Of a stretch of 64,000 nucleotides of DNA, positions 9,602 through 35,732 are shown piece by piece (the first letter of the stretch is position 1; each line of letters begins with the position of its first letter). Below the pieces are notes generated by a model. It did no database searches, was not told the DNA's origin, and saw nothing but the letters and a program-made list of their open reading frames with translations. The translations under genes were made by a program, and so were the position numbers. This stretch comes from a virus: positions 68,552-132,551 of the IMG/VR virus record IMGVR_UViG_3300042868_011620. One strand, written 5' to 3'.

Positions 9602-9676
9602 TGGTGGATCTACTTGGAATCGAACCAAGATTAAAAGCTTAGAAGGCTCTTGTCTTATCCATTAGACGATAGATCC
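9602..9676 (-). tRNA. trnR: tRNA-Arg(UCU)
   Basis: Cloverleaf GGATCTA...CT-TCT-AA...GGTTCGATTCC...ACCA. Confidence 0.9.
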
Positions 9677-9831
9677 AAAGGTTTATTTGCGTTTAAATAC
9701 AGATGGTCTCTGCATAGCAATGATAGTCAAGATGAGAAGATTTACAAGCAGAATATAAGGTTGGTCCATATTATTTTTTGGTTTGGGGCAGAGAGCCACT
9801 ACACTCCCTGCCCCGTTATGTACCACTACTC

Positions 9832-10737
9832 CTACAGACTAGCAAGCACATTCAAGCCCTTGCTAGTAATTTTTCTAGTCACATCAATTCTAATGAAGTT
9901 TTTCTTCAGCAAGAAACTTTCAACATCGCGTTGCAAAGTACTGCGACTCAAACCAGTAACTGCACTAAGCATAGTCAAGGTGCAATCGCCTCTTTCTTTC
10001 AAGATGTTTAACACTTCGATTTCAGAATTGCTCAAACCATTCTTTTCAATGTTCACCAAGCTGCAAAGATCTTCCCAAGAACTAGAGTCAAAGAAACTCT
10101 GATTGTTTTTATTACAGTACCGCAAGATTTCATTTGCTCTGAGAACTGCACTGCGAGCATTGCCCCGAACGCTATCAGCAATGGTTTCGAGAACATCATC
10201 GCGAAACTCTACCCAGGAAGTTGCCACTTTGATGATCTGCGCCATCTCCCCACTACTGTATGGTTTAAAATCAATGATTGTGAATCGATCCTTCAATGGG
10301 GCGAACACTTTCTCTTGATCAGTAGTAGCAAACAAATAAGTTTGTTTGTCAAAGTTGAACTCTGCAATCTCATCATTAAAGCTGAACTCTCTCACTGCTG
10401 GGCCTTGAGTGTTAAACACAGTGAGGAAAGTCATCATTAAACTTTTGGGCAAAGCATGACACTCATCAAACAAAACTGTAACAGCTTTATTCATAATGTG
10501 CGGCACAAAGATTTGCTCGAAGAACTGATTAGAGTCTTTGATGGTGGAACAGTTAATTTCCATCATTGGTTTCTTCAGCGCCTTGGCAAAGCCTCGGCAG
10601 AATTCAGTCTTGCCCGAACCCTTCGCGCCATTCATCATGATGAAAGGAATGCGAGTGTTGGAGGTTTGACTGTCCAGATAAAAACCAAGTTGTCGTTTAA
10701 TGTGATCCTGCCCAATGAGAGAAGAGAAGTTTTCCAT
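9832..10737 (-). CDS. ruvB: RuvB-like AAA+ ATPase
   Basis: LIGQDHIK, Walker A GAKGSGKT, Walker B LFDECH, ATTD, PLKDRF, RGNAR and C-terminal winged-helix-like VESFLL. Confidence 0.75.
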   Translation of the reverse strand: MENFSSLIGQDHIKRQLGFYLDSQTSNTRIPFIMMNGAKGSGKTEFCRGFAKALKKPMMEINCSTIKDSNQFFEQIFVPHIMNKAVTVLFDECHALPKSLMMTFLTVFNTQGPAVREFSFNDEIAEFNFDKQTYLFATTDQEKVFAPLKDRFTIIDFKPYSSGEMAQIIKVATSWVEFRDDVLETIADSVRGNARSAVLRANEILRYCNKNNQSFFDSSSWEDLCSLVNIEKNGLSNSEIEVLNILKERGDCTLTMLSAVTGLSRSTLQRDVESFLLKKNFIRIDVTRKITSKGLNVLASL

Positions 10738-10787
10738 TGTAGTGTAGTGTATAGTGGAAAGGAAGGTAGCCGCACTGCGGAGGGTTG

Positions 10788-11048
10788 TCAAGCGTTTTCT
10801 AGTGGCGCATACTCATCAAAGTTTGTCACGCTAAAAGAAATCTTGCTTTCTGGTTCTTCAGACTCAACAACAGTTTTAACGAGGTTTACTTTTTGTTCAA
10901 TGCTGATGTGATTTTCGCGCAACCACATGGTAGAAACTTTCACCACTGCATTCTCTCCAACCATAGAGATTAAGTCTTGCAGTTTAATTTTGGCAAAGCT
11001 GTTGCTACCAGGAGGACGACCACGACGTTTAGGGGATTCAGTGTTCAT
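10788..11048 (-). CDS. AT-hook-containing small protein
   Basis: PKRRGRPPGS motif near the N-terminus. Confidence 0.7.
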   Translation of the reverse strand: MNTESPKRRGRPPGSNSFAKIKLQDLISMVGENAVVKVSTMWLRENHISIEQKVNLVKTVVESEEPESKISFSVTNFDEYAPLENA

Positions 11049-11227
11049 AGAGTATATATAGTATAGTAGTTTGATGTTTGTCAAGAACAGAGTGTTCGAG
11101 AAGGGAAAGTACAGCATACATGCCGCGAGTCAAGGATTTTTTTCACATTTAAATCTTTTTTTAAAAGCAAGGAGTTTTTTAGTGTAAACTCTTTTTCGGC
11201 GCGAAAAGCTGTGGGTTTGCAGACTTC

Positions 11228-11292
11228 TTTTATTTGACAAAAAGTCGTTCGTAATTAGACCCTGTTTATTTGGCAAAAAGTCGTTCGTAATT
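11228..11292 (+). repeat. direct repeat TTTATTTG(A/G)CAAAAAGTCGTTCGTAATT x2
   Basis: Two near-identical 28-mers; degenerate third copy at about 11414-11441. Confidence 0.75.
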
Positions 11293-11368
11293 TGGTACAT
11301 CATGTCGGACTCGAACCGACACTAGACAGATTTTAAGTCTGTTGCCTCTGCCATTGGGCTAATGATGC
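11293..11368 (-). tRNA. trnL: tRNA-Leu(UAA), short variable loop
   Basis: ACAGA-CT-TAA-AA-TCTGT anticodon arm, GGTTCGAGTCC T-arm, CCA end. Confidence 0.85.
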
Positions 11369-11441
11369 ATAGTGTATACTAAAGAGAGTTCAGCTCTTGT
11401 CAATGGGATTTTGTTTATTTGTCCCACTCTCTTTCGTAATT

Positions 11442-11517
11442 TGGTGGACGCACAGGGGCTCGAACCCTGGACCAAGAAATTATGAGTTTCACGCTCTAAC
11501 CGCTGAGCTATACGTCC
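11442..11517 (-). tRNA. tRNA-CAU (Ile2 or elongator Met)
   Basis: CT-CAT-AA loop, G1-C72 pair (not initiator), CCA end. Confidence 0.85.
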
Positions 11518-12948: not shown

Positions 12949-13185
12949 TTACACTTTTGCTTCTTTTTCGCTATTAGTAATTTCAAAATCGTTGAAAATG
13001 TAGTCAAACAAGAATCCTTGATCTTTGTCCACCACCAAGCTAGTATTTTGAAAGCCTAATTGTTTTTCTATTAGCTCTTTGTACAGATGGTCTTGCATTT
13101 CGCTTAATTTGTAAATGATTTTTTTGCAATCATTGATTTGCATCATTTCTTCGTCAGAGTATTTGCGGTTACCAATTTGTTTCAT
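12949..13185 (-). CDS. hypothetical protein
   Basis: 78-aa ORF adjacent to the upstream gene. Confidence 0.7.
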   Translation of the reverse strand: MKQIGNRKYSDEEMMQINDCKKIIYKLSEMQDHLYKELIEKQLGFQNTSLVVDKDQGFLFDYIFNDFEITNSEKEAKV

Positions 13186-13188
13186 AAG

Positions 13189-13680
13189 TTATTTATTTTT
13201 TTGTGGTTTAATGTAAAAGTTATACCCCTTACCATTGCAAGCTGAACAACAAACTTCTGGATAGTCTTCTACTCCAGATCCATCGCAAATCGGACAGAAA
13301 TTATTCATTTCCATTAGTTCCCGTTCATAAGCATCCAATTTTGATTGTTTAACTGCATCAGACAGGCACATAAAAACCTCTTCGCCGTCAACCAAAACTT
13401 CATCATAATGATCAGGCTCCCAACGTCCTCCATTGGACATTTTGATAGTAGATCGAATCCAAACTTGTTTATTAGTAGTCTTACTCAAGATGCCACGAAC
13501 AGGAACTTCCATCATGACGGAATAATAGAAAAATTCCCTATCTGTATAAACGCCTTCTTTTAATTTTAAATTCCAGTCAGAAACCTGCTGGGCGAGATTC
13601 AAGTCTGCGTCTGTAGCAGCAAGAAACTCTTCTAATTCGCAAGATAATTGGGGCGTGTCAATGGTTTTGATTTTGATCAT
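13189..13680 (-). CDS. protein with C-terminal DnaJ-type Zn-finger repeats
   Basis: CPICDGSG...CSACNGKG; upstream TTGATT-N16-TAATCT. Confidence 0.75.
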   Translation of the reverse strand: MIKIKTIDTPQLSCELEEFLAATDADLNLAQQVSDWNLKLKEGVYTDREFFYYSVMMEVPVRGILSKTTNKQVWIRSTIKMSNGGRWEPDHYDEVLVDGEEVFMCLSDAVKQSKLDAYERELMEMNNFCPICDGSGVEDYPEVCCSACNGKGYNFYIKPQKNK

Positions 13681-13831
13681 GACTTAGATTACTGCAATTT
13701 GCGCGAGAATCAAGGGATTTTTTCTATTTTTTAAAAAACTAAATATTAATCTTCTGCTATTTGATCATCTAGTTCATCATCACTATCAGTTTCATACACT
13801 TCATCTGTGTCATCTTCGATTTCGTAAGTTA

Positions 13832-14032
13832 TCAATTTGTTTTTCTAGAATTCCAAGAGTCAAGTGCAGCTTGAAGATTGTGATGCCAAGGACCATTGCA
13901 AGCGCATTCTTCACACTCTACTCTGTATCCTCCTGGATAAGTGTGAAGCGAGATGGCTGGAGTTTCCTCGTCATTGATTTTGTCTTGATCAGTTATCCCG
14001 CAGAATGGACAGTGTTGTAATTTTTGACTCAT
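13832..14032 (-). CDS. Lar-like (restriction alleviation family) Zn-ribbon protein
   Basis: LQHCPFCG...VECEECACNGP...ALDSWNSR. Confidence 0.7.
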   Translation of the reverse strand: MSQKLQHCPFCGITDQDKINDEETPAISLHTYPGGYRVECEECACNGPWHHNLQAALDSWNSRKTN

Positions 14033-14035
14033 AAA

Positions 14036-14236
14036 TTATTCATTTTGTTTAAAGTAATCTATTGTAACATCCTCTACAAAATCGGCTACAGAATAATATA
14101 CAGAATTCCTTACAGAATCATCTACAGAATCCACTACAAAACTCCATGCAGAATTCCATCCAGAAAATTTTATACAAGTATGTATACTATTTCTTAAAGA
14201 ATCCCTTAAATCGTCGATGGCAGTATCATGTATCAT
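14036..14236 (-). CDS. SVxx-repeat array protein
   Basis: Ends IDYFKQNE. Confidence 0.8.
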   Translation of the reverse strand: MIHDTAIDDLRDSLRNSIHTCIKFSGWNSAWSFVVDSVDDSVRNSVYYSVADFVEDVTIDYFKQNE

Positions 14237-14418
14237 TTTGTTTTAAAGTAATCTTTTACAGAACTCCTTACAACATCCCATACAGAATACCTTACAGAAT
14301 CCAATATAGAATCCGATACAGAAGCCTGTACGGAACATCTCACAGGCCAATTTACAGAATAATATAAAGAATTCCTTACAGAACTCAATACGGCTTTATT
14401 AATGCTGGAGTTAATCAT
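14233..14418 (-). CDS. SVxx-repeat array protein
   Basis: Ends KDYFKTK. Confidence 0.8.
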   Translation of the reverse strand: MINSSINKAVLSSVRNSLYYSVNWPVRCSVQASVSDSILDSVRYSVWDVVRSSVKDYFKTK

Positions 14419-14422
14419 TGCT

Positions 14423-14701
14423 TTATTTTATCAGAGTTCGCAATCTATGCAACAAGTATTTTATTGGTGAAATTGGTTTTGGTTCTTCGATTGCTGGACG
14501 AGCTAAGGCATAGCCGCCAATGCGTATCAGCAATAGCATATCATTGTGGTATTCCGCTGGAATGCCCGTAAAATCAAATGTTGCAGTTACTCCATAACCA
14601 TGTGCGGTCACATAGTTTTTTATTTTTAGAATTGGCGGGATGTCCACAGTGAATGATGGATTAGAGTCGTATATCGATATGTTTTCGGCAGTTTCAGTCA
14701 T
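14423..14701 (-). CDS. unrelated hypothetical protein inserted in the array
   Basis: No SVxx repeats; ATGA-coupled to the upstream array unit. Confidence 0.7.
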   Translation of the reverse strand: MTETAENISIYDSNPSFTVDIPPILKIKNYVTAHGYGVTATFDFTGIPAEYHNDMLLLIRIGGYALARPAIEEPKPISPIKYLLHRLRTLIK

Positions 14702-14886
14702 AATTTTTGTTTAAAGTAATCATTTACAGAAGCTTTTACAGAATCCGATACAGAATTCTTTACAGAATTCTTTACAGAATTATATACAAAAATCCTTACG
14801 GTCTCCCTCGCAGCTTTCATTACAGAATGCCATACAGCTTTCCTTACAGAATCCCATACAGCTTGACTAACGATAGAATCATTCAT
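14698..14886 (-). CDS. SVxx-repeat array protein
   Basis: SVKNSVKNSVSDSVKASVNDYFKQKL. Confidence 0.8.
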   Translation of the reverse strand: MNDSIVSQAVWDSVRKAVWHSVMKAARETVRIFVYNSVKNSVKNSVSDSVKASVNDYFKQKL

Positions 14887-15091
14887 TTTGTTTAAAGTAA
14901 TCTCTTATAGAGTCTCTTACAGTAGCTTTTATAAAATCGTTTACAGCGCTCTCTACAGAACGTACTACAGAATTATATACAGGACACCGTACAAACCCCT
15001 CTATATAATGCCATGCAGAGTCCCTTGCAGAATTTTCTACAGAATCCATTACAGACTCCAATGTATTTTCATAAACGATAGAATAATTCAT
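14879..15091 (-). CDS. SVxx-repeat array protein
   Basis: Ends RDYFKQNE. Confidence 0.8.
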   Translation of the reverse strand: MNYSIVYENTLESVMDSVENSARDSAWHYIEGFVRCPVYNSVVRSVESAVNDFIKATVRDSIRDYFKQNE

Positions 15092-15159
15092 CACTTTATT
15101 TTATCAGAGTTCGTTTGAAGTAATTTTTTATCATTTTTAATTACTGAGTAGGATTGTAT

Positions 15160-15414
15160 CTATAGTAGCTCAAGGTCTTGTGTTGTCAAGGAGTTTTGTT
15201 CAAAGTAATCTCTTGCAGAACCCCACACATCATGCCTTAGAGAGGTCTCTACATCTTCCTCTATACAATCCCATCCAAAGTCCCATACAGATCTGTCTAT
15301 GATCCTTGCAGAACGTACTATAGAATTATATACAGATTCTCCTATAGCATCATAGGCAAATTTCCATACGTAATCATCGATATTAAAATTTTTAGTGTTG
15401 TTTTTATTATTCAT
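15160..15414 (-). CDS. SVxx-repeat array protein
   Basis: RDYFEQN with a short C-terminal extension. Confidence 0.8.
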   Translation of the reverse strand: MNNKNNTKNFNIDDYVWKFAYDAIGESVYNSIVRSARIIDRSVWDFGWDCIEEDVETSLRHDVWGSARDYFEQNSLTTQDLELL

Positions 15415-15598
15415 TTTGTTTAAAGTGATCTACTACAAAATCATATACAGAATCTTTTATATTAGTCCAAACAGGATCTCCTACAGCACTCCTTGCATGA
15501 ATCCTCGCAGGCAGCTGTATATTCTCTTTTATACAATTCCACACAGAAGCTTCTACATGATCATTCTTTATAGAGCACCAATATCTTATACTATTCAT
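15407..15598 (-). CDS. SVxx-repeat array protein
   Basis: Ends DHFKQNE. Confidence 0.8.
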   Translation of the reverse strand: MNSIRYWCSIKNDHVEASVWNCIKENIQLPARIHARSAVGDPVWTNIKDSVYDFVVDHFKQNE

Positions 15599-15824
15599 TT
15601 TTTAAGCGTTTTTGTTTGAAGTACTCTACTGTAGTGTCTCTTACAGAACTCTCTACAGACCTTCCTATAGTTCGCCATACAGAATGCTCTACAGGATGCT
15701 CTACAGAATAGCTGACAGCATCCGCTATAGCATCCTCTACATAATCCTTTATCCCATCGTTTACAGAATTTCCTACAGAATGATATATAGAATACCACAC
15801 GGCAATGCTTGTATTATTATTCAT
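15591..15824 (-). CDS. SVxx-repeat array protein
   Basis: Ends EYFKQKRLKNE. Confidence 0.8.
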   Translation of the reverse strand: MNNNTSIAVWYSIYHSVGNSVNDGIKDYVEDAIADAVSYSVEHPVEHSVWRTIGRSVESSVRDTTVEYFKQKRLKNE

Positions 15825-16005
15825 TTTGTTTAAAGTAATCTATTGTAGAATCTATCACATAAATCTCTACCCAATTTACGACAGAAAACTTTGTAATATT
15901 CCATGCAGAAAGTACTATAGGGCCTCTTACAGAACTCCATATAGAACACCATGCAGAATCTTCTACAGAAATCCACGCAGCTTTATAAACAGAGAAGTTA
16001 TTCAT
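15817..16005 (-). CDS. SVxx-repeat array protein
   Basis: MNNFSV...IDYFKQNE. Confidence 0.8.
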   Translation of the reverse strand: MNNFSVYKAAWISVEDSAWCSIWSSVRGPIVLSAWNITKFSVVNWVEIYVIDSTIDYFKQNE

Positions 16006-16012
16006 TGCTTTA

Positions 16013-16228
16013 TTAATTTTCAAAGTAATCTCTTGCAGTACCGCTTGCAGCATCCCTTATTGAAACCTTTACGGAATTACCAATAACAATCCATATAGAC
16101 TCATGTACAGAAACTCTTGCAGGATTTGTTACAAAATCGAATACAGACCTCCATACTAATCTTCTTACAGAATATGTAATGCTATAACCTATATCATCTT
16201 TTATAATATGCATTACTTTATTGTTCAT
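16013..16228 (-). CDS. SVxx-repeat array protein
   Basis: MNNKV...RDYFEN. Confidence 0.8.
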   Translation of the reverse strand: MNNKVMHIIKDDIGYSITYSVRRLVWRSVFDFVTNPARVSVHESIWIVIGNSVKVSIRDAASGTARDYFEN

Positions 16229-16427
16229 TTTGTTTGAAGTAATCTCTCGTAGCATTTGCTATATCAAACCATACAGAAGCTCTTGCTTTAAAATCTCTTC
16301 CAGTAGTAAATCTTACAGTATAACTAGTAGAATTAAACAAAGAGTCCCACATAGAAGCTCTAAAACTATTCCATATCGAAATTTCTACAGAATCCTGTAC
16401 TTTTTTAGTGATAAAAAAATCATTCAT
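16218..16427 (-). CDS. SVxx-repeat array protein
   Basis: MNDFF...RDYFKQNEQ. Confidence 0.8.
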   Translation of the reverse strand: MNDFFITKKVQDSVEISIWNSFRASMWDSLFNSTSYTVRFTTGRDFKARASVWFDIANATRDYFKQNEQ

Positions 16428-16654
16428 TGGTTTATCCAATTTTGATTGAAGTAATTAATTGTACAGTTTGCTATAGGAATCTCTATAGACGGTTTTACCG
16501 TGTCCCACACAGCGTTCCTGATGTATTGACCAGCACCATTCCATACTCCATCTCCTACAGATTCTTCTATAGTATCCACTATAGGATATGCCAAGGAATC
16601 AGATATTAATTTTGACGGACAATATCTCACATTCTCTCTTATAGTTTTATTCAT
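16424..16654 (-). CDS. SVxx-repeat array protein
   Basis: Ends INYFNQNWINQ. Confidence 0.8.
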   Translation of the reverse strand: MNKTIRENVRYCPSKLISDSLAYPIVDTIEESVGDGVWNGAGQYIRNAVWDTVKPSIEIPIANCTINYFNQNWINQ

Positions 16655-16844
16655 TTTTAAAGTAATCTTTAGTAGCCTCTCTTGTAAAATCCTGCATAAG
16701 AGAACCTATAGGGTCTTCCGAACCGTGTCCAATAGGATAAATTACAGTGAGCAACACACATACATGTACAACCTCTTCTACAGCGTGCCACACTTTAACT
16801 CTTAAACTTCGTTCTACAGTTTCGCTAATGGTAGAATCATTCAT
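16647..16844 (-). CDS. SVxx-repeat array protein
   Basis: Ends KDYFKNE. Confidence 0.8.
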   Translation of the reverse strand: MNDSTISETVERSLRVKVWHAVEEVVHVCVLLTVIYPIGHGSEDPIGSLMQDFTREATKDYFKNE

Positions 16845-17049
16845 TTTGTTTAAAGCAATCTCTTGCAGAGTCTCTTACAGCCTTAAATACAGAATTAATT
16901 ATTACGCTTCTTGTGCAATTATATACAGGCTTGTTTACAGAAACTCCTACAGCCCTCCATATAGGATTTTGTATAGAACTTCTTATAGAACTCTCTACAG
17001 GAACTCTACAGAGATCATTCACAGCTTTATAAATAGTAGAATGATTCAT
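16837..17049 (-). CDS. SVxx-repeat array protein
   Basis: Ends RDCFKQNE. Confidence 0.8.
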   Translation of the reverse strand: MNHSTIYKAVNDLCRVPVESSIRSSIQNPIWRAVGVSVNKPVYNCTRSVIINSVFKAVRDSARDCFKQNE

Positions 17050-17249
17050 TGTTTAAAGTAATTTTTTGCAGAACGATGTATAAAAATTGTAAAATGCTCT
17101 GTACAATTCTGCGTAAAACTACGCCACGCTGATTGTACAGCATCATTTCGCACAGAAGTAAACAAACAATGTCTCAGTGGTTTCCATATGTCGCTAATTA
17201 CAGCTTGCTGCACAGAATCTCTTACAGAGGCTTTGATATTAGTATTCAT
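17046..17249 (-). CDS. SVxx-repeat array protein
   Basis: MNTNIK...KNYFKQ. Confidence 0.8.
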   Translation of the reverse strand: MNTNIKASVRDSVQQAVISDIWKPLRHCLFTSVRNDAVQSAWRSFTQNCTEHFTIFIHRSAKNYFKQ

Positions 17250-17451
17250 TTTTAAAGTAATCACTGGCGGCATCCTCCACTGCAAAACCGATTGAACTCC
17301 ATGAAACATACCTCATGGATTCTCTCACCACAGCTCTAACATCTCCCCATACTTGATTCCATATAGAATATGTTATAAAATTTCTTGCAACCTCGCCCGT
17401 GCATTCTCGCACATTTTTTTGAACAGCTTGGTTAATAGTGGATTTGTTCAT
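17239..17451 (-). CDS. SVxx-repeat array protein
   Basis: Ends SDYFKNEY. Confidence 0.8.
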   Translation of the reverse strand: MNKSTINQAVQKNVRECTGEVARNFITYSIWNQVWGDVRAVVRESMRYVSWSSIGFAVEDAASDYFKNEY

Positions 17452-17672
17452 TTTTGTTTAAAGTAATCTAGCGCAGCATCATCTATATCAGACCATACAT
17501 CATCTATTACTAAACTCCTTACACGATCTATTGTCCAATCTCTTAGATTGCCCCGCACAGAAGTTCTAATGTATCTCCATGTAGGTTGTCTTAGTTCCCC
17601 TAGCTTATATCCAGAATTTAATATTGAATTTGCAACATAAATAGTTTTAGGTTCACTTATTCTATTATTCAT
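17448..17672 (-). CDS. SVxx-repeat array protein
   Basis: Ends LDYFKQK. Confidence 0.8.
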   Translation of the reverse strand: MNNRISEPKTIYVANSILNSGYKLGELRQPTWRYIRTSVRGNLRDWTIDRVRSLVIDDVWSDIDDAALDYFKQK

Positions 17673-17890
17673 TTTTGTTTAAAGTAATTAAAAAGAGAAT
17701 CCTCTATAAAATTCTCTATCTCCATTAGCGTAACAACTGTGGGAGAGGCCACTATAAGTACTCTACAAGATTCTGCAACAGAATTCTTTACAAAACGATG
17801 AACAATATCCTCTATGGAACCCCACATTAAACTTCCCGCAGCAATTCTTGTGGAGTATTTAATGCTGCCTGATGATATTTTATTTTTCAT
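17669..17890 (-). CDS. SVxx-repeat array protein
   Basis: Ends FNYFKQK. Confidence 0.8.
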   Translation of the reverse strand: MKNKISSGSIKYSTRIAAGSLMWGSIEDIVHRFVKNSVAESCRVLIVASPTVVTLMEIENFIEDSLFNYFKQK

Positions 17891-18098
17891 TTTTAAAAAA
17901 ATCTTCTACAGAGTATTCTATCGAAAGATTTGCATAAGTTCCTATAGTAGTCCATACAGGGAACCTTACAGAATTCCATACAGATTCTCTTAGAGTAAAA
18001 TGTGTACACTCTACTACAGAGCTATATACAGCATAACCTACGCGCCTTGTAACTATACCAGCAGTAGAGTGCTGCGTTGCAATAATAATATCACTCAT
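17880..18098 (-). CDS. SVxx-repeat array protein
   Basis: Ends EDFFKNEK. Confidence 0.8.
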   Translation of the reverse strand: MSDIIIATQHSTAGIVTRRVGYAVYSSVVECTHFTLRESVWNSVRFPVWTTIGTYANLSIEYSVEDFFKNEK

Positions 18099-18355
18099 TT
18101 TTTTGTTTTAAAATAATTAATTGATGCGCTCTCTATAATTGTTTGAATGGGGCGATTCAAGCCATCATCTATTAAACCACGAACTGATGAATGCCACACA
18201 TTATACTTAACAGAATCGTGAACAATGTCCTCTACGGGACGCAATGTACAACGATGAACACAAAAGTAAACAGAAAAATAAACACAATTCCAAACAGATT
18301 TTCTAGTCGATTTATTAGTGGGAACGTTTAGGGATTTTAATGATTTTTTATTCAT
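18095..18355 (-). CDS. SVxx-repeat array protein
   Basis: Ends INYFKTKK. Confidence 0.8.
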   Translation of the reverse strand: MNKKSLKSLNVPTNKSTRKSVWNCVYFSVYFCVHRCTLRPVEDIVHDSVKYNVWHSSVRGLIDDGLNRPIQTIIESASINYFKTKK

Positions 18356-18579
18356 TGTTTAAAATAATTATGAATTTCCTCGCTTACACAATTACTTGTG
18401 GAATCTCTTACAGAGCGCCCTATAGAATAAAAAACATTAATCCTTAAAAAATCCCTCATAAAACTTGATGAAACTTCCAATACCAGTTCATCCACAGTCT
18501 TCTCTACATTATCCCATACAGCATAATATGCTGAATCTACTGCGCGAATCACTACATCTTCATCGGTTTTATCGTTCAT
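18352..18579 (-). CDS. SVxx-repeat array protein
   Basis: Ends HNYFKQ. Confidence 0.8.
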   Translation of the reverse strand: MNDKTDEDVVIRAVDSAYYAVWDNVEKTVDELVLEVSSSFMRDFLRINVFYSIGRSVRDSTSNCVSEEIHNYFKQ

Positions 18580-18811
18580 TTTGTTTAAAGTAATCTTTTA
18601 CATGAGGATTGATGGGAAGCTCTATAGAACTCCATACAGAATCCCAATAAGATTTTCTTTCGGAAATTCTTATAGAATCGAGTATAGATTCCCTTAGAGA
18701 GTAACCCGCAGAGTTGCATACAGAATGGTAAACAACTCTTTGAGCAGAATTCCACATAGCGTGCTCTACACAATCCCACACAATTCCAGCAATAGCAGAG
18801 TCGTCTTTCAT
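18569..18811 (-). CDS. SVxx-repeat array protein
   Basis: Ends KDYFKQNER. Confidence 0.8.
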   Translation of the reverse strand: MKDDSAIAGIVWDCVEHAMWNSAQRVVYHSVCNSAGYSLRESILDSIRISERKSYWDSVWSSIELPINPHVKDYFKQNER

Positions 18812-19005
18812 TTTGTTTTAAAGTAATCCTCTACAGATCGCTATACAGGAATATATACAGAAATATTTACAGAAATCTTTACAGAACCTAATATAGAACC
18901 TAATACAGAACCCCTTACAGAACTCCATATCGAATCCCATACAGGACTCCTTAAAGAATCAAATACAGACTTCGTCACATATTCATAAAGGGTAGAGTCA
19001 TTCAT
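18808..19005 (-). pseudogene. SVxx-repeat array unit with in-frame TAG
   Basis: MNDSTLYEY...SVYIPV*RSVEDYFKTK*; TAG at 18841-18843. Confidence 0.75.
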
Positions 19006-19204
19006 TTTGTTTAAAGTAATCGTAAGAGGCTTGACTAATGCAATTTTTTATAATTTGTTCTGAATGCCAAGTGCTGTCCCATACTGGATGCCATACAGAA
19101 GTTGATACTCTATTAACAACACATTTCCATACAGGATTATCTACTGATTTTGTCATAGACATTTGTATAGAAAAAGTAGTCGTGTCACTTAATTTATCAA
19201 TCAT
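18998..19204 (-). CDS. SVxx-repeat array protein
   Basis: Ends YDYFKQNE. Confidence 0.8.
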   Translation of the reverse strand: MIDKLSDTTTFSIQMSMTKSVDNPVWKCVVNRVSTSVWHPVWDSTWHSEQIIKNCISQASYDYFKQNE

Positions 19205-19394
19205 TTTGTTTAAAGTAATCTTGTGTACACTGCATCGCAGTATTTCGCGCAGAATGAATCGTGCGATTCTGTATGTAATGCCCGACAGTATTCCATAGAT
19301 GAATCTTTATAGAACGCCAAACAATTCTTTGAACAGGATTTTGCGAAGAACCCCATAAAATATTTCGTGTAGTTTTGTTTATTTCGTCAGTCAT
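19197..19394 (-). CDS. SVxx-repeat array protein
   Basis: MTDEINK...QDYFKQND. Confidence 0.8.
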   Translation of the reverse strand: MTDEINKTTRNILWGSSQNPVQRIVWRSIKIHLWNTVGHYIQNRTIHSARNTAMQCTQDYFKQND

Positions 19395-19845
19395 TTTTAA
19401 AGTAATCAATTACAGAATCATTTACAGGCCGCTTTATACGAGTCTGCACATAAAACACCACAGGATTTTCTACACCGTTCCATACTTCAAACCTTACAGA
19501 AAAATCCATAGAATCCCAGAAAGAATAATCTATCAATGTCTTTAGACAATCCACTGTCTTTATAGAATCCACCGTTGACTGGTTCATTCCATATTTTATT
19601 TTATTTGTTTTTATTTTATTTGTTTCAAAGTAATCTTCTATAGAAGCTTTTATAGGTATCCATGGTATACCTCTTATATCGTAAAGAGAACAAATGGACC
19701 CATACGCAGGATCTCCCACTGCATCTTCATTTTCCACATATTCTGTTATAATATCCTCGACAGAGTTCCATACGCAATCTCTTGCGAAAGCACATGAATA
19801 GTTTTCGATAGAAAATTCTATAAGTTTATTTAATTTATCGTTCAT
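19387..19845 (-). CDS. in-frame fusion of two SVxx-repeat array units
   Basis: MNDKL...EDYFET-NKIKTNKIKYG-MNQST...IDYFKND. Confidence 0.75.
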   Translation of the reverse strand: MNDKLNKLIEFSIENYSCAFARDCVWNSVEDIITEYVENEDAVGDPAYGSICSLYDIRGIPWIPIKASIEDYFETNKIKTNKIKYGMNQSTVDSIKTVDCLKTLIDYSFWDSMDFSVRFEVWNGVENPVVFYVQTRIKRPVNDSVIDYFKND

Positions 19846-20053
19846 TTTTTTGTTCAAAGTAATCAACAACAGCATCTCCCGCACTATACAACACTTTAAG
19901 ACTTGCGGATTCTCCTGCGTAAAAATCCCATACAAAATTTCTCGCAGAATATGCTACAGACTGAGTGATGGCTTTCCAAGCGGGATAATCTCTACCAGCA
20001 TCTGTTACTGAATACCAAACGTCACGGTCTACGTATTTATTAATTGTATTCAT
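19835..20053 (-). CDS. SVxx-repeat array protein
   Basis: Ends VDYFEQKNER. Confidence 0.8.
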   Translation of the reverse strand: MNTINKYVDRDVWYSVTDAGRDYPAWKAITQSVAYSARNFVWDFYAGESASLKVLYSAGDAVVDYFEQKNER

Positions 20054-20232
20054 TTTTGTTTGAAGTAGTCAACGACAGAAGCTTGTACAGGATTACTCAC
20101 AGTGCGACTGATGGATATGGAAATATCATCCCATGTAGCATAATCTACATACTTCCATATGATATAACCTACATTCTTCCAAACAGTAAACTTCGCAGAA
20201 TTTAAAATTTTTCTCACATCGCCGATATTCAT
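20050..20232 (-). CDS. SVxx-repeat array protein (first unit)
   Basis: Ends VDYFKQK. Confidence 0.8.
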   Translation of the reverse strand: MNIGDVRKILNSAKFTVWKNVGYIIWKYVDYATWDDISISISRTVSNPVQASVVDYFKQK

Positions 20233-20242
20233 TTTATATAAT

Positions 20243-20280
20243 AAAAAAGGCCCCCTGAAGTTTGATGTCTTCAGAGGGCC
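20243..20280 (-). terminator. intrinsic terminator between the DUF6745-like pair and the array
   Basis: Minus strand GGCCCTCTGAAG-loop-CTTCAGGGGGCC followed by T6. Confidence 0.8.
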
Positions 20281-20293
20281 ACTGTTTTAGCGA

Positions 20294-20632
20294 TTAATCT
20301 GCCACGTTGCGTTTGGCTTGAGCAATGTAATCGTATTCTTGTTGAATGCCAATTACATAAGTGCCAGGCACAATGTCAATGGTAGTGTGACGCTCCGACA
20401 TGACGCAGCTAATGTCAGTTGCTACAGTGCTGTTCATGTAGCGCTTGCCAGTCTTCTTAGAGTTCCAGAAGGTGACTCCAGGCTTATTAGCAATAACGTG
20501 ATGGTTGCCAGTAACTTCGCTGTTGGCGACAATCACTACTTTACTAGTGTGATTCTCAGCAATAGCGTCATCAGGCAAGCCTGCGCACTGAGCCACAATG
20601 CATTCGCCGTGAAGGATGATTTTCTTTTTCAT
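20294..20632 (-). CDS. conserved partner of DUF6745-like proteins (His-rich beta protein)
   Basis: HGE...SEVTGNHH...ERH...IVPGTY...QQEYD...RNVAD pattern. Confidence 0.7.
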   Translation of the reverse strand: MKKKIILHGECIVAQCAGLPDDAIAENHTSKVVIVANSEVTGNHHVIANKPGVTFWNSKKTGKRYMNSTVATDISCVMSERHTTIDIVPGTYVIGIQQEYDYIAQAKRNVAD

Positions 20633-20654
20633 ATGTTTATTTATTGTTTAATTA

Positions 20655-21614
20655 TTAAGCGATACCAACGATTTCATGATCCGAGAGATCAATGTCTCCG
20701 AGACGCTCAGCAATTGCTTGCTGAAGGTTCTTACACTCTGGAGAGACACTTTCGACATGCCACACTCCAACAGTTTGATTGAGCATCTTCAGGTGAGGAG
20801 CATAATCAATGCCTGGGTACAAAGCGGCCATGTCCCAGAGTTCATACTCACTCTTAGTCCACCACTCTTCAGTAGGATAGTTTTCGTAAGAGTCAATCTT
20901 CTTGCCGAAAGAAAGCATTCTTTCAACTCCGAATTTGCGAACAAACTCCATTTTGTGGTCTGCATTGTCCAGAGTATTGTACTGATCAAGAGTGAGTTCA
21001 TTGCTTGGAGTAACTGCCAACCACTCAGGAACTCTCGTTCCGTTGAGGATGAAGATGCTGTTCAATCCGTAACCATTGTAAGCAATGGCTGGACCACCGT
21101 CACAGTGAGTCACATTGTCTTCGTTGAGGTGAATCACAGTAGGCTTTTGACTCACTACCACAGCAGTGGGCATAGGATAAATCTGTCCCAGTTTGTGAGT
21201 AGCGTGCCAAATCTCGTAGCACTCATTAGCCTCTTTGAAGTCGATGCCGACTTCGTCGCGGAAGAAGTCGTAGAAGCTCCAGACATTCGCATCGAACGAT
21301 CCGTTGAGGTAGGGAGTGGTGTAAGTTTCGATTGCCATTTTAACACCTTGAACAAAGTATTCTTCAAGCTTTGATGGAATGTCTGCTGCTTCTACTCCAG
21401 CTTTCAAGTAGTGACAAGCTACCCATGCTTCCACAGGATTGTTCACAATGATTACTGGAGTAGGCTCAACCTTGAGCAAGTGAGTTTGCACTTTGTGAAT
21501 GATGCTCACAGTCTCATCATAGTCGAGACGATCAGTATTAATGCCAATCTTCAGCCACTTCTCAGTGTACTCAGACATTTTGGCAGTTTGTTCGGGAGTG
21601 AGGGATTCGATCAT
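20655..21614 (-). CDS. DUF6745-like protein
   Basis: MIESLTPEQ...EKWLKIG N-terminus, WSFYDFF, HCDGGPAIAY...NGTRVP...NADHK. Confidence 0.7.
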   Translation of the reverse strand: MIESLTPEQTAKMSEYTEKWLKIGINTDRLDYDETVSIIHKVQTHLLKVEPTPVIIVNNPVEAWVACHYLKAGVEAADIPSKLEEYFVQGVKMAIETYTTPYLNGSFDANVWSFYDFFRDEVGIDFKEANECYEIWHATHKLGQIYPMPTAVVVSQKPTVIHLNEDNVTHCDGGPAIAYNGYGLNSIFILNGTRVPEWLAVTPSNELTLDQYNTLDNADHKMEFVRKFGVERMLSFGKKIDSYENYPTEEWWTKSEYELWDMAALYPGIDYAPHLKMLNQTVGVWHVESVSPECKNLQQAIAERLGDIDLSDHEIVGIA

Positions 21615-21624
21615 TTTATTTAGT

Positions 21625-21915
21625 TTATTTTAGGTTGTTGTTGGTGGATTCTTGAAACAGTTCAGTCATTTGTTTGAGCCTACTGTTTGCACTCTCAAGC
21701 TCTTTGTCAATGACAAAATCAGGTCGAACAGTAAATATTTTATCACATTCAAGCATTTCAATTTCAAGCTTGATTTTCTCAATCTCGTAATAATGTTGAG
21801 TGAGAGCGCCTCCTGCTACGGGAGGCTTATCTGCTGTAACAGTAGAAGCATTGTTTCTTACGATAATTAATGTAAGTACTGTTACTACAGAGGTGGCGAG
21901 GAGAATTGCTTTCAT
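21625..21915 (-). CDS. hypothetical protein with N-terminal signal/TM segment
   Basis: MKAILLATSVVTVLTLIIV... Confidence 0.6.
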   Translation of the reverse strand: MKAILLATSVVTVLTLIIVRNNASTVTADKPPVAGGALTQHYYEIEKIKLEIEMLECDKIFTVRPDFVIDKELESANSRLKQMTELFQESTNNNLK

Positions 21916-21959
21916 TTTGGAGAATACTCTAGATTTTTCGATTGTCAAAGTTTTTTTCT

Positions 21960-22385
21960 CTAAAAATAAGATTCGCCAAGGGGAGCTTTATCGCACATCA
22001 AAGATTCAATGATTTTTGCAGCGTTGTCATGAAAGCTGGGATATTGAAGATGAGAGAATTCTTGTCCATGTTTAGCGATCAAAGCATTCCAGTCAGCTAA
22101 CGCTTCTGGAGAAATTTCCACTTTTACTGGTCGAGCCTCACTAGCTTCTCTGATAATTTGAATCAAAGATTCACTCTTGTCGCGAGCAGCAGCAGCAATT
22201 TCGGCGCGGCGAGGATAAATAGTACTACGCATGGAAATTCCTCCTTTGTCAGACACTTTTACCAACCACCAACCAGCAGAGAGTCCTTGATATGCCCAAG
22301 GATCATTGATTGGCACATATTTTTTCCCCTGCTTTTTGTAAACAATCTCTTCAGATCGATCTTGAATGTTTGAGTAAGCTGTCAT
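21960..22385 (-). CDS. hypothetical phage protein
   Basis: 141 aa; upstream TTGACG-N16-TAAGAT, 6 nt before ATG. Confidence 0.75.
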   Translation of the reverse strand: MTAYSNIQDRSEEIVYKKQGKKYVPINDPWAYQGLSAGWWLVKVSDKGGISMRSTIYPRRAEIAAAARDKSESLIQIIREASEARPVKVEISPEALADWNALIAKHGQEFSHLQYPSFHDNAAKIIESLMCDKAPLGESYF

Positions 22386-22430
22386 GAGAGTATCTTACCA
22401 CTCATTTAGACTGCGTCAAGCATTTTTCGA

Positions 22431-22844
22431 CTAATTTTTGGGAATTTTTCCAGCAGACTCTAATTTTTTCCGATTAGCTTGGTGCAAGTCTTTAATATTA
22501 TTTTTATTTTCACCATTATATGGTACAGCATAGCCATCTCGAATGAGACAAGTTGACACAGACTCTTGGTTCACTATAAAATCTCCTAAAATGCGACCGT
22601 ATTTGTCATTTATAGTTGTTTGAACAACTTGAATGGATGAAATTGGCAAGAGTTCTGCTAGTCTTTTCTTGCTTAAAACGCCAAAAGATTTTTCAACGGG
22701 ATCAGAGGTGCGACTCTCTGGAGAGTCGATGCCCAGCAGTCGAATCACCACGTTGTTCATCCAAATATTAAACCCAACATCAACATCCACTTTCACAGTA
22801 TCGCCATCAATGATTTCAATTATTTTGCATTTGTACTGATACAT
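22431..22844 (-). CDS. thermonuclease (SNase-like) family protein
   Basis: IIDGDTV...IRLLGIDSPESRT...DKYGRILG...GYAVPY. Confidence 0.9.
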   Translation of the reverse strand: MYQYKCKIIEIIDGDTVKVDVDVGFNIWMNNVVIRLLGIDSPESRTSDPVEKSFGVLSKKRLAELLPISSIQVVQTTINDKYGRILGDFIVNQESVSTCLIRDGYAVPYNGENKNNIKDLHQANRKKLESAGKIPKN

Positions 22845-22845
22845 T

Positions 22846-23163
22846 TTACTTTTTTAAGAATTTTAATGGATCAGCCGCGAATTTTATTCCAATTTTAACA
22901 ATGCCATTAATGATTTCGGGAGATATCACTCCAATAATGCCATAAGTAACAGCTTTATAAAGACTAGAAATGTCTGTTTGCTCTAAAACAAACCACGCAA
23001 CACCACTGCTTATAGCAGCAGTGATGATGCGTTTGATTTGATTGAGTACTGTTAAATTAGAGTCAGATGACAATAATCTTGCTAACATTGCGCCCGCCCC
23101 TATCAAAGGAACAATCCATCCTCCGTTCACGAATTCCTTTAATAATGACTTTTCTGTTTCCAT
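22846..23163 (-). CDS. multi-TM membrane protein, holin-like
   Basis: Three hydrophobic segments and a basic C-terminus. Confidence 0.6.
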   Translation of the reverse strand: METEKSLLKEFVNGGWIVPLIGAGAMLARLLSSDSNLTVLNQIKRIITAAISSGVAWFVLEQTDISSLYKAVTYGIIGVISPEIINGIVKIGIKFAADPLKFLKK

Positions 23164-23228
23164 ATATACCTTTACAGTATATAACAAAAAATGAGGTTAA
23201 ATACTAGCATTTTGTTCGTGATATTGCA

Positions 23229-23936
23229 TTAATATTCTACAATATTTATCTTTTCAACTTGAGTTTCGCCCCACGCTTCTAAAGTGTGTTTAAAGGGAGA
23301 ACCTTCAATGTTTTTAACCAGTTCGAGCATTTCTTGCGCTAATTCTCTGATTTCTAATTGAGCGTGCTCACTGTTGCGCAAGTTTTGAAAATTAGCAAAA
23401 CTTCTCATGTTGAAAGCGATGTCTGCTTGAATTTGAGAATTATAAGTCTTAAAAAAGCGAGCGCTTTCTTTAGCTCTTTTTCTGCCCAAGGTTGGTTCGA
23501 GGTCTTTAACACACTGATGATAAAGAGAGTTGCCCATTTTAGTATACTCTTCTAACAGACTTAACCATGAATTTTTAGTAAAACCGTAGGTATCATCTTG
23601 AGGGCCAATATCTTGGGATGGATACAACCCTTCCCAATCTTCAGGAAGATAAAATTTGTCCTCTTTTAATTCTTTATATCTCGCCGATTCTGCATTCATT
23701 GATGAAATTCTGTGTTTAAGCAGATGGCAATGCGAAGCAATTTCGGTATCTACTAAAAAATGCACCATGCCTTTTTCCCAAGGAGTGTGATGACCTTCTC
23801 GCCATAGTCTCTGAATCATTCTAGGAATGCGATTTCTTTTCTCTTCGCTTAAATCTCTAGAAGTTGAGGTCCACGCTGAGCAAGCAATGATTTCATCTGA
23901 TCCGTAATATCCAATGAGTGATACTTTATTTTTCAT
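23229..23936 (-). CDS. thyX: flavin-dependent thymidylate synthase
   Basis: HHTPWE, LLKHR...AESARY, ESAR, NMRS...LRNSEHAQLEIR. Confidence 0.9.
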   Translation of the reverse strand: MKNKVSLIGYYGSDEIIACSAWTSTSRDLSEEKRNRIPRMIQRLWREGHHTPWEKGMVHFLVDTEIASHCHLLKHRISSMNAESARYKELKEDKFYLPEDWEGLYPSQDIGPQDDTYGFTKNSWLSLLEEYTKMGNSLYHQCVKDLEPTLGRKRAKESARFFKTYNSQIQADIAFNMRSFANFQNLRNSEHAQLEIRELAQEMLELVKNIEGSPFKHTLEAWGETQVEKINIVEY

Positions 23937-24600
23937 AGTTTAGTTTATAGAGTTCAAGTTCAGCGCAAATGCGGCTTTTGCAACCGTTATTTTCTGCACG
24001 ACAAACAGAGTGAAAGTGACCGCAAAAATGATATTTAGGCTGGCAAAGCTCAATTAGTGAAGAAACTCCTTTTCTCTCTTCGCAGCACTCTACCCAAAGA
24101 GTTGCATCGTCAACTTCCCAGCTACGAATTGGACCTTTAGTGGTTGGACCGTTCCAAATTGGAGCGGAATGAGTGATGAGGATATCGCACTTTTGAGCTT
24201 TTTCAGGAATTAAAACGAATTTTTCTCCTCGCCACCAAGATACTCCTTCTTGTCTAGCTTGTCGGTCAATGGATATTGCTCCACCCACAAAGAAGAATTT
24301 AATTCCTTCGATTTCTCGAAACGAATAATCTTCCAAAAGCTCGAAATTAGAGAATTTAAAATTGCCATGAAAAAAATCTGGATTGCTATGATTGCCGCGA
24401 ATGCTCAAGTATTGAATATTCCTGTTTAAGAATACACTATTTAAACGATCATATAAATCAAAAGATTCATACTGATCATGAAATCCTTCTCCACCATCAC
24501 CAACGTGAAGAATGTAAGAGTCTCGCAAGTTAAATTTACTAATAATGCTTAATAATTTAGTATACTGACCATGATTGTCGCCAAGAATATAAATGTCCAT
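23926..24600 (-). CDS. calcineurin-like metallophosphoesterase
   Basis: GDNHG, VGDGG, RGNH, ITHSAP and CGHFH motifs. Confidence 0.9.
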   Translation of the reverse strand: MDIYILGDNHGQYTKLLSIISKFNLRDSYILHVGDGGEGFHDQYESFDLYDRLNSVFLNRNIQYLSIRGNHSNPDFFHGNFKFSNFELLEDYSFREIEGIKFFFVGGAISIDRQARQEGVSWWRGEKFVLIPEKAQKCDILITHSAPIWNGPTTKGPIRSWEVDDATLWVECCEERKGVSSLIELCQPKYHFCGHFHSVCRAENNGCKSRICAELELYKLNYEK

Positions 24601-28023: not shown

Positions 28024-28199
28024 TCTTTTACAATGTAAACTGTGTTGTCGTTAATAATTCCAGAAGCTGCTAATGCTGCGTAATTTGCAGGCGTTAGCAT
28101 AACAAAAGTGGGAATGCTAAGAGAAGCTCTGATTCCGCTAGCTTGAACCAGAGTTGGTCCAACTCCAGAAGGTGGGGTTGCTAAGTCGATGTTTGCCAT
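28020..28199 (-). CDS. small protein, paralog of 32198..32383 (59 aa, not in ORF track)
   Basis: MANIDLATPP...GIRASLSIPTFVML...NTVYIVKE. Confidence 0.8.
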   Translation of the reverse strand: MANIDLATPPSGVGPTLVQASGIRASLSIPTFVMLTPANYAALAASGIINDNTVYIVKE

Positions 28200-28264
28200 A
28201 TATACATTTTACACACAAAACCCCCAAAGATTAGCAATTAAAATGAATAGAAAATTAAAGGAAC

Positions 28265-30202: not shown

Positions 30203-30233
30203 GCTTATTATTGATAAGATTATTTTTAATATT

Positions 30234-33752: not shown

Positions 33753-33840
33753 TGGCGGATGCGGAGAGATTTGAACTCTCGGTAGCTCTCGCTACGGCAG
33801 TTTTCAAGACTGCTGACATAAACCGCTCGACCACACATCC
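33753..33840 (-). tRNA. trnS: tRNA-Ser(UGA)
   Basis: GCAGT-CT-TGA-AA-ACTGC, long variable arm, GCCA end. Confidence 0.9.
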
Positions 33841-33849
33841 AAGAGAGAC

Positions 33850-33920
33850 AGCGGGCAGCGGGAATCGAACCCGCATAGCTAGTTTGGAAAACTAGGACTT
33901 TACCACTAAGCTATACCCGC
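33850..33920 (-). tRNA. trnG: tRNA-Gly(UCC)
   Basis: GCGGGTA...CTAGT-TT-TCC-AA-ACTAG; no encoded CCA. Confidence 0.9.
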
Positions 33921-33928
33921 AAAATAAA

Positions 33929-34015
33929 CGATGGAGGAGAGATTTGAACTCTCGGTAGCTTTTAAACTACGACGCTTTAGCAAAGCGTTGCCTTAAACCA
34001 CTCAGCCACTCCATC
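33929..34015 (-). tRNA. trnS: tRNA-Ser(GCU)
   Basis: ACGCT-TT-GCT-AA-AGCGT, long variable arm. Confidence 0.9.
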
Positions 34016-34021
34016 TTAATG

Positions 34022-34525: not shown

Positions 34526-34587
34526 ATTGTTGTTTGTTTGGGTTTCTTGATAAGAACTACTCATTATTATCAAAAATTATTTAAAAG

Positions 34588-34782: not shown

Positions 34783-34795
34783 ATTAATTATAAAG

Positions 34796-34871
34796 TGGGA
34801 TACCCAGTAGGACTCGAACCTACAACCAACAGTTTTGGAGGCTGTTGCTCTACCAATTGAGCTATGGATAC
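34796..34871 (-). tRNA. trnW: tRNA-Trp(CCA)
   Basis: CT-CCA-AA loop, GGTTCGAGTCC T-arm, CCA end. Confidence 0.85.
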
Positions 34872-34882
34872 GTATGTTAAAA

Positions 34883-35724: not shown

Positions 35725-35732
35725 AAATAAAG

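Follow-up and report, generated by a model that had tools for sequence, protein, structure and literature searches.

Why does a phage keep 28 small repeat units as separate genes beside one gene of the DUF6745 superfamily, and could these units act as parts of the protein encoded there? The question is raised by a 64,000-nucleotide stretch of viral DNA, referred to here as the window (IMG/VR virus record IMGVR_UViG_3300042868_011620, positions 68,552 to 132,551 of that record). An earlier note, made from the sequence of the window, had proposed that the variable insert of a DUF6745-like protein was externalised and amplified as an array of units acting in trans. The open reading frames (ORFs) named in that note were all recovered on the minus strand at the window positions listed below. 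Our analysis leads us to give about an even chance that the locus is a split DUF6745 system whose array provides, in trans, a choice of helical inserts. The elements of the locus are termed the core, the partner, and the array.

20655-21614 (-), core: tract-less DUF6745-superfamily protein, 319 aa (Pfam, PHROGs, hhalign, AlphaFold2)
20294-20632 (-), partner: conserved His-rich protein, 112 aa, HGE...SEVTGNHH...C...RH...E.D (adjacency, motif, weak phrog_27831 match)
14036-20232 (-), entire array: 27 ORFs that hold 28 unit equivalents, and one ORF unrelated to them (ORF list, unit profile)

A DUF6745 protein without an internal tract

The core matched the Pfam family DUF6745 (PF20530) with 25.7 bits (E 8.4e-06) over profile positions 33-129 of 206. 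This score is below the gathering threshold of 27 bits by a small margin; close homologs of the core, including P0001 (95% identity), bear a precomputed PF20530 label. The core also matched phrog_31813 in PHROGs, and a word-indexed search yielded 191 core homologs of 175-559 aa. When a core-family profile built from 64 members was compared with a DUF6745 set by hhalign, the two matched with a probability of 100% (E 1.6e-43) over 294 columns covering both domains. The DUF6745 set consisted of six cyanobacterial open frames, which were taken from PF20530 matches in a six-frame genome search, together with P0125 (Pfam-scanned, 156.9 bits) and P0130, P0147, P0167, and P0175 (not Pfam-scanned). The family assignment made in the earlier note thus falls short of the Pfam cut-off for the single sequence and holds at the level of profiles.

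The long insertion of the bacterial DUF6745 set fell exactly at a 40-residue linker of the core in the hhalign comparison. As claimed before, the core has no internal tetrapeptide tract: the linker, which occupies the site where relatives have the tract, is not repetitive, and a hidden Markov model (HMM) of the units did not match the core (linker lengths were determined with hmmalign). The N-domain motifs LTPEQ..Y..KW..IG..T and NP.EAW are shared with DUF6745 proteins. Judged by these profile comparisons, the core is genuinely related to DUF6745, and its variable region lies at the same site. The AlphaFold2 (AF2) model of the core had a predicted local distance difference test (pLDDT) score of 94.7. 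A fold search with this model gave nothing convincing, with 0.24 as the lowest Foldseek E and 3.9 as the highest VIA-align Z; this is not proof of a new fold. A sequence search of the PDB with core and partner profiles returned chance-level rows only, and tblastn with the core against the GenBank phage collection returned a single weak match.

Among 201 sampled cyanobacterial genomes, 22 contained the DUF6745 family, in as many as 5 copies each, and some copies lay in tandem. Long N-terminal leucine-rich-repeat arrays were fused to cyanobacterial DUF6745 proteins at L056, L059, L060, and L062 (genomes G129, G072, G158, and G198, among those sampled), and leucine-rich repeats stand in for the N-terminal part in some cyanobacterial members. 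These fusions would agree with a scheme in which variable recognition modules are attached to the C-domain. In the cores L026, L027, L030, and L031, a Lys/Glu-rich, probably helical insert of 63-76 residues replaces the tetrapeptide tract at the tract site, and a few QV-type units lie near these cores. At L043, a DUF6745 homolog with a QV tract and its partner were split over several frames, possibly by frameshifts or sequencing errors.

Organization of the array

The count of 28 stand-alone units given in the earlier note was reproduced, with 25 single intact ORFs, one ORF in which two units are fused, and one unit interrupted by TAG. A unit consists of M-N-x-S, 10-15 repeats of [S/A][V/I]-x-x, and the tail D-Y-F-K-Q(-N-E). 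On the coding strand, the array region contained 27 ATG-initiated ORFs of at least 55 aa, compared with 1.1 ± 1.0 (maximum 5) in 300 shuffles. Of the 26 junctions, 21 had overlaps of 4, 8, or 11 nt between consecutive ORFs, the stop codon of one unit lying over the ATG of the next. The DNA at the junctions was near-constant, and the unit interiors were about 23% identical. This anatomy shows an ordered array of small genes with constant ends and variable interiors. The elements are listed below in the order in which they follow the partner; all units were identified with the unit HMM unless otherwise stated, and L006 is one of the related arrays used for comparison.

20249-20280 (-), terminator-like hairpin between the partner and the first unit, 12-bp stem, 8 G-C pairs, T run (consensus scan)
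20050-20232 (-), unit 1; E 1.8e-15; tail DYFKQK
19835-20053 (-), unit 2; E 9.8e-16; tail DYFEQKNER
19387-19845 (-), units 3 and 4 in one ORF (19588-19845 and 19387-19587), no intervening stop; E 9.4e-32
19197-19394 (-), unit 5
18998-19204 (-), unit 6; L006 counterpart with 87% aa identity
18808-19005 (-), unit 7; in-frame TAG (18841-18843) ahead of an intact RSVEDYFKTK tail (ORF inspection)
18569-18811 (-), unit 8; strain variant with 6 non-synonymous and 2 synonymous codons
18352-18579 (-), unit 9
18095-18355 (-), unit 10
17880-18098 (-), unit 11; tail DFFKNEK
17669-17890 (-), unit 12
17448-17672 (-), unit 13; L006 comparison
17239-17451 (-), unit 14
17046-17249 (-), unit 15
16837-17049 (-), unit 16; tail DCFKQNE; strain variant with 13 non-synonymous and 4 synonymous codons
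16647-16844 (-), unit 17
16424-16654 (-), unit 18; L006 comparison
16218-16427 (-), unit 19; L006 comparison
16013-16228 (-), unit 20
15817-16005 (-), unit 21
15591-15824 (-), unit 22; L006 comparison
15407-15598 (-), unit 23; tail DHFKQNE
15160-15414 (-), unit 24; extended tail DYFEQNSLTTQDLELL; L006 comparison
14879-15094 (-), unit 25; L006 counterpart with 90% aa identity
14698-14886 (-), unit 26, the unit folded and docked (AF2, complex model)
14423-14701 (-), unrelated ORF within the array, 92 aa, coupled by ATGA overlap; no family
14233-14418 (-), unit 27; L006 comparison
14036-14236 (-), unit 28, the last

The 92-aa ORF is kept in L006 with 82% aa identity and a ratio of non-synonymous to synonymous substitution rates (dN/dS) of 0.25, which indicates purifying selection. 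Read-through of the TAG in unit 7 was considered and rejected, as TAG also terminates two other units and a nonsense mutation is the simpler explanation. Promoter-like sites numbered 36 in the region and 37.4 in shuffles and were therefore not in excess; one of the 36, TTGACA-16-TACTAT at window positions 15162-15189 (-), lies at the 65-nt gap of units 24 and 25.

Units are related to the internal tracts of DUF6745 proteins

A search of 1.84 billion representatives with the 28-unit profile matched 1577 proteins at E<=1e-3. The best matches were proteins of 350-590 aa with several matched stretches, and the top matches (E values down to 5e-44) lay inside DUF6745 proteins, a similarity to which repeat-composition bias may contribute in part. 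Among the best 150 of the 1577 matches, 70 carried the DUF6745 C-domain and 24 belonged to a second tract-bearing family, as assigned with local HMMs; the remainder comprised 10 stand-alone units (54-94 aa) and 46 other or fragmentary repeat proteins. All four of the long top matches that were scanned with Pfam, namely P0121, P0122, P0125, and P0129, were DUF6745 proteins (46-157 bits to PF20530), and tens of repeats precede 'YGQHDA.WL.FYDYF' in each. Phage relatives of the core carry a tract at the same site, of the QVxD type in L034, L035, and L043 and of the NLxT type in L041/L042. The statement in the earlier note that DUF6745 proteins contain an SVWDSVRDSV-type tract followed by W..FYDYF was correct, since the tracts sit inside bona fide as well as phage DUF6745 proteins. 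Lack of profile similarity between units and DUF6745 inserts had been named as a point that would tell against the proposal; the units do match the inserts, and these searches show that units and tracts are homologous. NCBIfam searches with tract-bearing proteins gave low-complexity noise only.

The correspondence covered the repeats and the residues directly behind them. The earlier note had suggested aligning the units with the repeat-plus-FYDYF segment, which would make their DYF the counterpart of the W..FYDFF motif; the repeat part could be aligned, and the unit tail did not fall on WSFYDFF. HMMER aligned the unit tail DYFKQ with NYFET, which comes right after the P0129 tract and 13 residues before W..FYDYF, and a weak hhalign match placed the tail on core residues 76-92 (..EEYFVQGVK, with EEYF at 84-87). 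The unit tail instead matches the 'xYF' directly behind the tract.

The second tract-bearing family consists of proteins of 180-290 aa with the arrangement ..LLKQW[DA]SV, an SVWDSV-type tract, and ..DLW..GLVPSFDG..WRLHSG. Members include P0155, P0164, P0171, and others, as well as L070, L071 (three in tandem), L077, and L092. These proteins had no partner gene nearby and no clear Pfam family, apart from a weak DUF7666 match on L092. They resemble the window units in the tract, as seen in P0155, P0164, and L071, and differ in that the flanking domains are unrelated and the family is absent from the window. Because a family with unrelated flanking domains also carries it, the tract appears to be a portable module.

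Internal tracts and external arrays are mutually exclusive

Around 43 viral core homologs, which were sampled from the core side, unit ORFs on the strand of the core and within 10 kb of it were detected in 26 cases, downstream or upstream of the core and usually within 6 kb. Sampling from the tract side, with two stand-alone units as queries, gave arrays beside tract-less cores (42 units at L082 and 9 at L090); it also gave tract-bearing DUF6745 genes with a partner and without units, and members of the second family. The loci were pooled, same-contig loci were removed, and the cores were classed with an HMM of the C-domain only. Arrays of at least two units were found at 26 of 48 tract-less cores, the window being one of the 48, and at none of 13 tract-bearing cores. 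Fisher's exact test gave p = 2.8e-4 for this table, a value that is only indicative because near-identical contigs and two sampling schemes entered it. The tracts of L041-L043 were missed by the unit HMM, so that these loci were counted as tract-less without an array, which works against the association. The suggested co-occurrence of repeat-less cores with arrays was borne out, and, for the gene sequences compared here, an internal tract and an external array are shown to be mutually exclusive.

Five array loci had no detected core (L069, L076, L087, L093, and L099), and whole-record searches found no core for them; the records are 20-33% complete and the arrays lie at contig ends. At L087, a divergent tract-less DUF6745-like ORF, which was missed by the HMMs, stands directly before 39 units. 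Clear cases of arrays independent of DUF6745 loci, which would have spoken against a split system, did not emerge from this survey, the coreless ones lying at the ends of incomplete records.

Predicted docking of a unit on the core

Modelled alone from a 70-sequence alignment, unit 26 (14698-14886) was predicted to form a single helix over residues 2-61 (AF2 pLDDT 94.4). The earlier note had called for complex modelling of the core with units; the interaction prediction score from aligned errors (ipSAE) was 0.87 in each of three runs, whereas the best of three controls reached 0.00. Between runs, 91% or more of the contacts recurred, and the pLDDT of the binding partner in the complexes was at least 84. 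In a calibration of the tool, 58 of 80 solved complexes attained the mark, as did 2 of 110 mismatched pairs, counts that hold only roughly here because our own alignments were used. As a prediction, the complex model supports binding of the unit to the core.

According to the model, the unit would contact core residues 4-25, 45-48, 60-64, 95-118, 122-136, and 147-194. The C-terminal end of the unit would lie beside core residues 60-61 and 97-104, which are the linker ends and the site of tract insertion in fused relatives. Grouped by repeat phase, the predicted contacts involved V in 13, S in 12, x1 in 9, and x2 in 3 of 13 repeats, and the column entropies of the units at V, S, x1, and x2 were 1.75, 2.30, 3.09, and 3.08 bits, respectively. 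Because the contacts fall on the conserved repeat phases, the conserved S-V stripe is the predicted docking face. The hypervariable positions, above all x2, would be largely exposed.

Contrasting selection on the core and the units

The closest arrays compared were L003, L005, and L006, whose cores are 88-92% identical. The core and the partner had dN/dS values of 0.02-0.10, with synonymous divergence (dS) saturated or high. Only 9 of 27 window units had a counterpart of more than 55% identity in L006, with dN/dS values of 0.41-2.80; for the other 18, no L006 counterpart exceeded this level. The shared units occurred in shuffled order relative to the closest arrays. The unit tails were lineage-specific, with DYFKQ in the window and NKINETIT, IKDLIKSYDT, EYEY, and KLDSYEF elsewhere. 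An exact scan for the junction pattern across viral contigs matched the L006 contig only. The comparison shows that the core and the partner are under strong purifying selection and that the units turn over fast. The pattern is one in which the machine is conserved and its small parts are exchanged or diversified rapidly.

The stretch occurs in lake-water metagenomes, with 24 runs listed, 20 of which contained at least half of the sampled words; none of the 24 was an RNA run. Run X3 was identical over the compared pieces. In run X7, differences clustered in units 16 and 8, with the codon changes given in the list above, and a 2360-base contig of this run spanning the core, the partner, and the first units had zero differences. 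Joints between units were seen in run X8 (85% likeness, mixed metagenome); as related phages or repeat assembly may have produced them, no conclusion was drawn.

The partner gene

The partner adjoins the core, is about 110 aa long, and has the motif HGE...SE[TV]TGNHH...RH, as other members of its family do. It carries NSEVTGNHH, where the family consensus is SETTGNHH, and its invariant residues are H8, G9, E10, S38, E39, T41, G42, N43, H44, H45, C76, R81, H82, E99, and D101. A small His-rich gene beside DUF6745, which the earlier note had described, was adjacent in 42 of 43 viral loci and in all four loci of a genome collection. In that collection, which holds one genome per species for 185,579 species, the partner occurred at these four places only. 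Each of them lies on a short contig from a metagenome-assembled genome and has the core gene adjacent, and for this reason the partner looks virus-borne. The match to phrog_27831 was weak (E 0.0024), and no match was found in Pfam, NCBIfam, or the PDB. An Atlas search with the partner returned unnamed viral clusters only, and the core, the partner, and a unit had no match in PADLOC-DB at E<=0.01.

A possible mechanism and the evidence against it

The explanation that we favour is a split DUF6745 system. In most relatives, a single protein comprises an N-domain, a C-domain, and between them a long helical tract of [S/Q][V/L]xx repeats in which two positions of each repeat are hypervariable. The window core has both domains with only the 40-residue linker at the tract site, and 28 separate small genes encode the tract, each probably specifying one long amphipathic helix of about 60-85 residues with a conserved DYFKQ tail. 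A helix is predicted to lie in a groove of the core by its conserved S-V stripe and tail. The groove would be built from helix 7-24, the NPVEAW site, loop 95-104, the FYDFF helix, and sheet 147-194, and would adjoin the points at which, in fused relatives, the tract branches off from the rest of the chain and rejoins it, while the variable positions, rich in W/R/D/N/G/Y, would remain exposed. A single conserved core, probably assisted by the His-rich partner, could in this way be fitted with different recognition helices, of which about 27 are on offer. The array would serve as a collection of interchangeable specificity parts that evolves fast and is most likely directed at host targets that vary. 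From the complex model we infer binding in trans; expression of the units, participation of the partner, and the target of the units are presumed in the same scheme.

More tentatively, the phage may hold about 27 recognition helices as a germ-line repertoire, each able to replace another in the core and the partner, and these would form a combinatorial binding library engaging many variable host targets. Its logic would resemble that of immune receptor diversity, and the fused single-tract DUF6745 proteins of other phages and of bacteria would be the one-specificity version.

The proposal of a split system with modules supplied in trans is supported by the homology, the co-occurrence, and the docking model, and it did not gain the FYDFF equivalence or a direct profile match between unit and core. 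The hhalign comparison of the units with the tract-less core family was insignificant (probability 1.4%, E 0.038, 16 columns), and this is one of several observations that weigh against the split system. An array was not seen at 22 of the 48 tract-less loci, and two 100%-complete phage genomes (G005 and G006) contain a short-linker tract-less core with no unit anywhere, so that an array is dispensable for such a core. The redundancy that makes the exclusion p value indicative belongs here as well. The predicted binding comes from one model of one unit with unpaired alignments of our own. Core interface residues were no more conserved than other residues within 1-200 (1.56 vs 1.63 bits, p = 0.66), and the exact period of 4 makes the hydrophobic stripe wind round a straight helix, so that the flat docking geometry should be taken as provisional. 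Values of dN/dS near 1 for several units are also compatible with relaxed constraint. The units are not preceded by Shine-Dalgarno sequences, and likewise none was present before 24 of 25 other genes checked. Finally, the terminator-like hairpin, called by a consensus scan that found no more such sites in the region than in shuffles, lies between the core/partner pair and the array and makes it doubtful that the pair heads one operon with the array. Of the earlier statement that the pair heads the array, the order of partner and then units stands, and a shared operon is doubtful.

Alternative explanations

It is unlikely, in our estimate, that units and DUF6745 are linked by descent only, the units being a duplicated DUF6745 tract that acts alone, for example as self-associating coiled-coil microproteins binding host targets. 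The tract is embedded in the second, unrelated family as well and is thus portable without need of DUF6745. This agrees with such independence, as do the hairpin between the pair and the array, the arrays located 2-6 kb upstream of the core in L010, L012, and L029, and the unremarkable conservation of the core interface. However, units independent of the core would not be expected to avoid tract-bearing cores (0 of 13, against 26 of 48 tract-less ones), and both the complex score, compared with its controls, and the coincidence of the conserved stripe with the predicted contact face argue for a link with the core.

A role as competitors or regulators is improbable. The units would inhibit or decoy the groove of the phage core, or the groove of a tract-bearing DUF6745 protein of the host or of a co-infecting phage. 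The docking model would apply equally to such inhibitors, bacteria do have tract-bearing DUF6745 proteins (the family occurs in the cyanobacterial genomes mentioned above), and rapid turnover of the units fits an arms race. The core of the phage itself, however, has no tract to displace, and a DUF6745 target in the host is hypothetical. It is also hard to rationalise 27 inhibitors of one groove in which the groove-facing stripe is conserved and the exposed face is variable.

In prochlorosin-type systems for ribosomally synthesized and post-translationally modified peptides (RiPPs), one enzyme serves many diverse precursor genes, and borosin systems exist in fused and split forms. By this comparison, the units could be a substrate library of precursor peptides that are modified or processed by the core and the partner as a possible metalloenzyme, an explanation that we consider very improbable. 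A conserved pair is indeed accompanied by many small diverse genes with conserved ends, several His, Cys, Glu, and Asp residues are invariant in the partner, and both fused and split forms of the family occur. Nevertheless, the tract of fused relatives is internal between two folded domains rather than at a releasable end, the units have no Cys and no leader/core organisation, and no known RiPP enzyme family was among the Pfam and NCBIfam matches of the core or the partner.

The weakest explanation, a non-functional expansion by slippage or unequal recombination on the conserved junction repeat with no selected protein function, would accommodate dN/dS values of about 1 or above in several units, the amber-interrupted unit, the fused pair, and the foreign ORF, and unit numbers from 0 to more than 40 among relatives, but we give it hardly any credence in view of the 27 open frames where 1.1 were expected, the S-V periodicity and tail kept while the x positions vary, the array nearly unchanged in many lake metagenomes (20 of 24 runs, with X3 identical over the compared pieces), and the recurrence of arrays in phages whose cores are only 40-60% identical.

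Comparison with known systems

Tract-bearing DUF6745 proteins (P0129, P0125, and L035) share with the window locus the N-domain, the C-domain, the [S/Q]Vxx chemistry, the 'xYF' ending, and, in phage members, the partner. They differ in that the window core has no tract, which is encoded there as 28 separate genes. Prochlorosin precursor arrays and the alternative specificity subunits of Type I restriction systems are cases in which one enzyme or core is served by many small products. The split system would be analogous to them in its single conserved core and its tandem diversified small genes with constant ends. They have no sequence or fold relation to the window locus, whose units are helices that would dock as a structural component and differ from leader-core peptides and DNA-recognition domains. 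The targets of diversity-generating retroelements may, by analogy, be likened to the units in their variable positions rich in W/R/G/D/N/Y on a conserved scaffold, whereas the window keeps its diversity in the form of many germ-line paralogues. Among 10 window ORFs examined with Pfam and 10 with PHROGs, none was a reverse transcriptase, in a survey that was not exhaustive and included no template-repeat search. Among the papers searched, none named DUF6745 or PF20530 and none dealt with the repeat motif.

Genomic setting

The window belongs to the genome of a large, uncultured tailed phage. It encodes ThyX and a tail fibre J-like protein, and it also contains an ORF of tape-measure size and 10 tRNA genes. 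The tRNA genes are located at window positions 33753-35805 and 9602-11517 and include two for Ser and those for Trp, Asn, Arg, and Gly. These amino acids are also common in the units; a link to the tRNA genes of the window is speculative. At window positions 26461-32201 (-), three paralogous large ORFs (520, 645, and 655 aa) each match phrog_22899 and phrog_3649, both of unknown function. Megablast of window positions 13000-24000 against the GenBank phage collection gave no match.

Implications

DUF6745 is a widespread and unstudied family, with hundreds of metagenomic phage proteins in addition to its occurrence in the 22 of 201 cyanobacterial genomes. The relationship described here explains a class of arrays of hypervariable microproteins, which gene calling and annotation treat as hypothetical ORFs with no relation to one another. 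The system is directly testable, as the core has 319 aa and the units about 65 aa, the docking is predicted with high confidence, and the stripe and the exposed face suggest clear mutants. Should the split form function in the way the model suggests, a virus would have a new route to diversify one complex, by means of dozens of small exchangeable parts rather than mutation of one gene.

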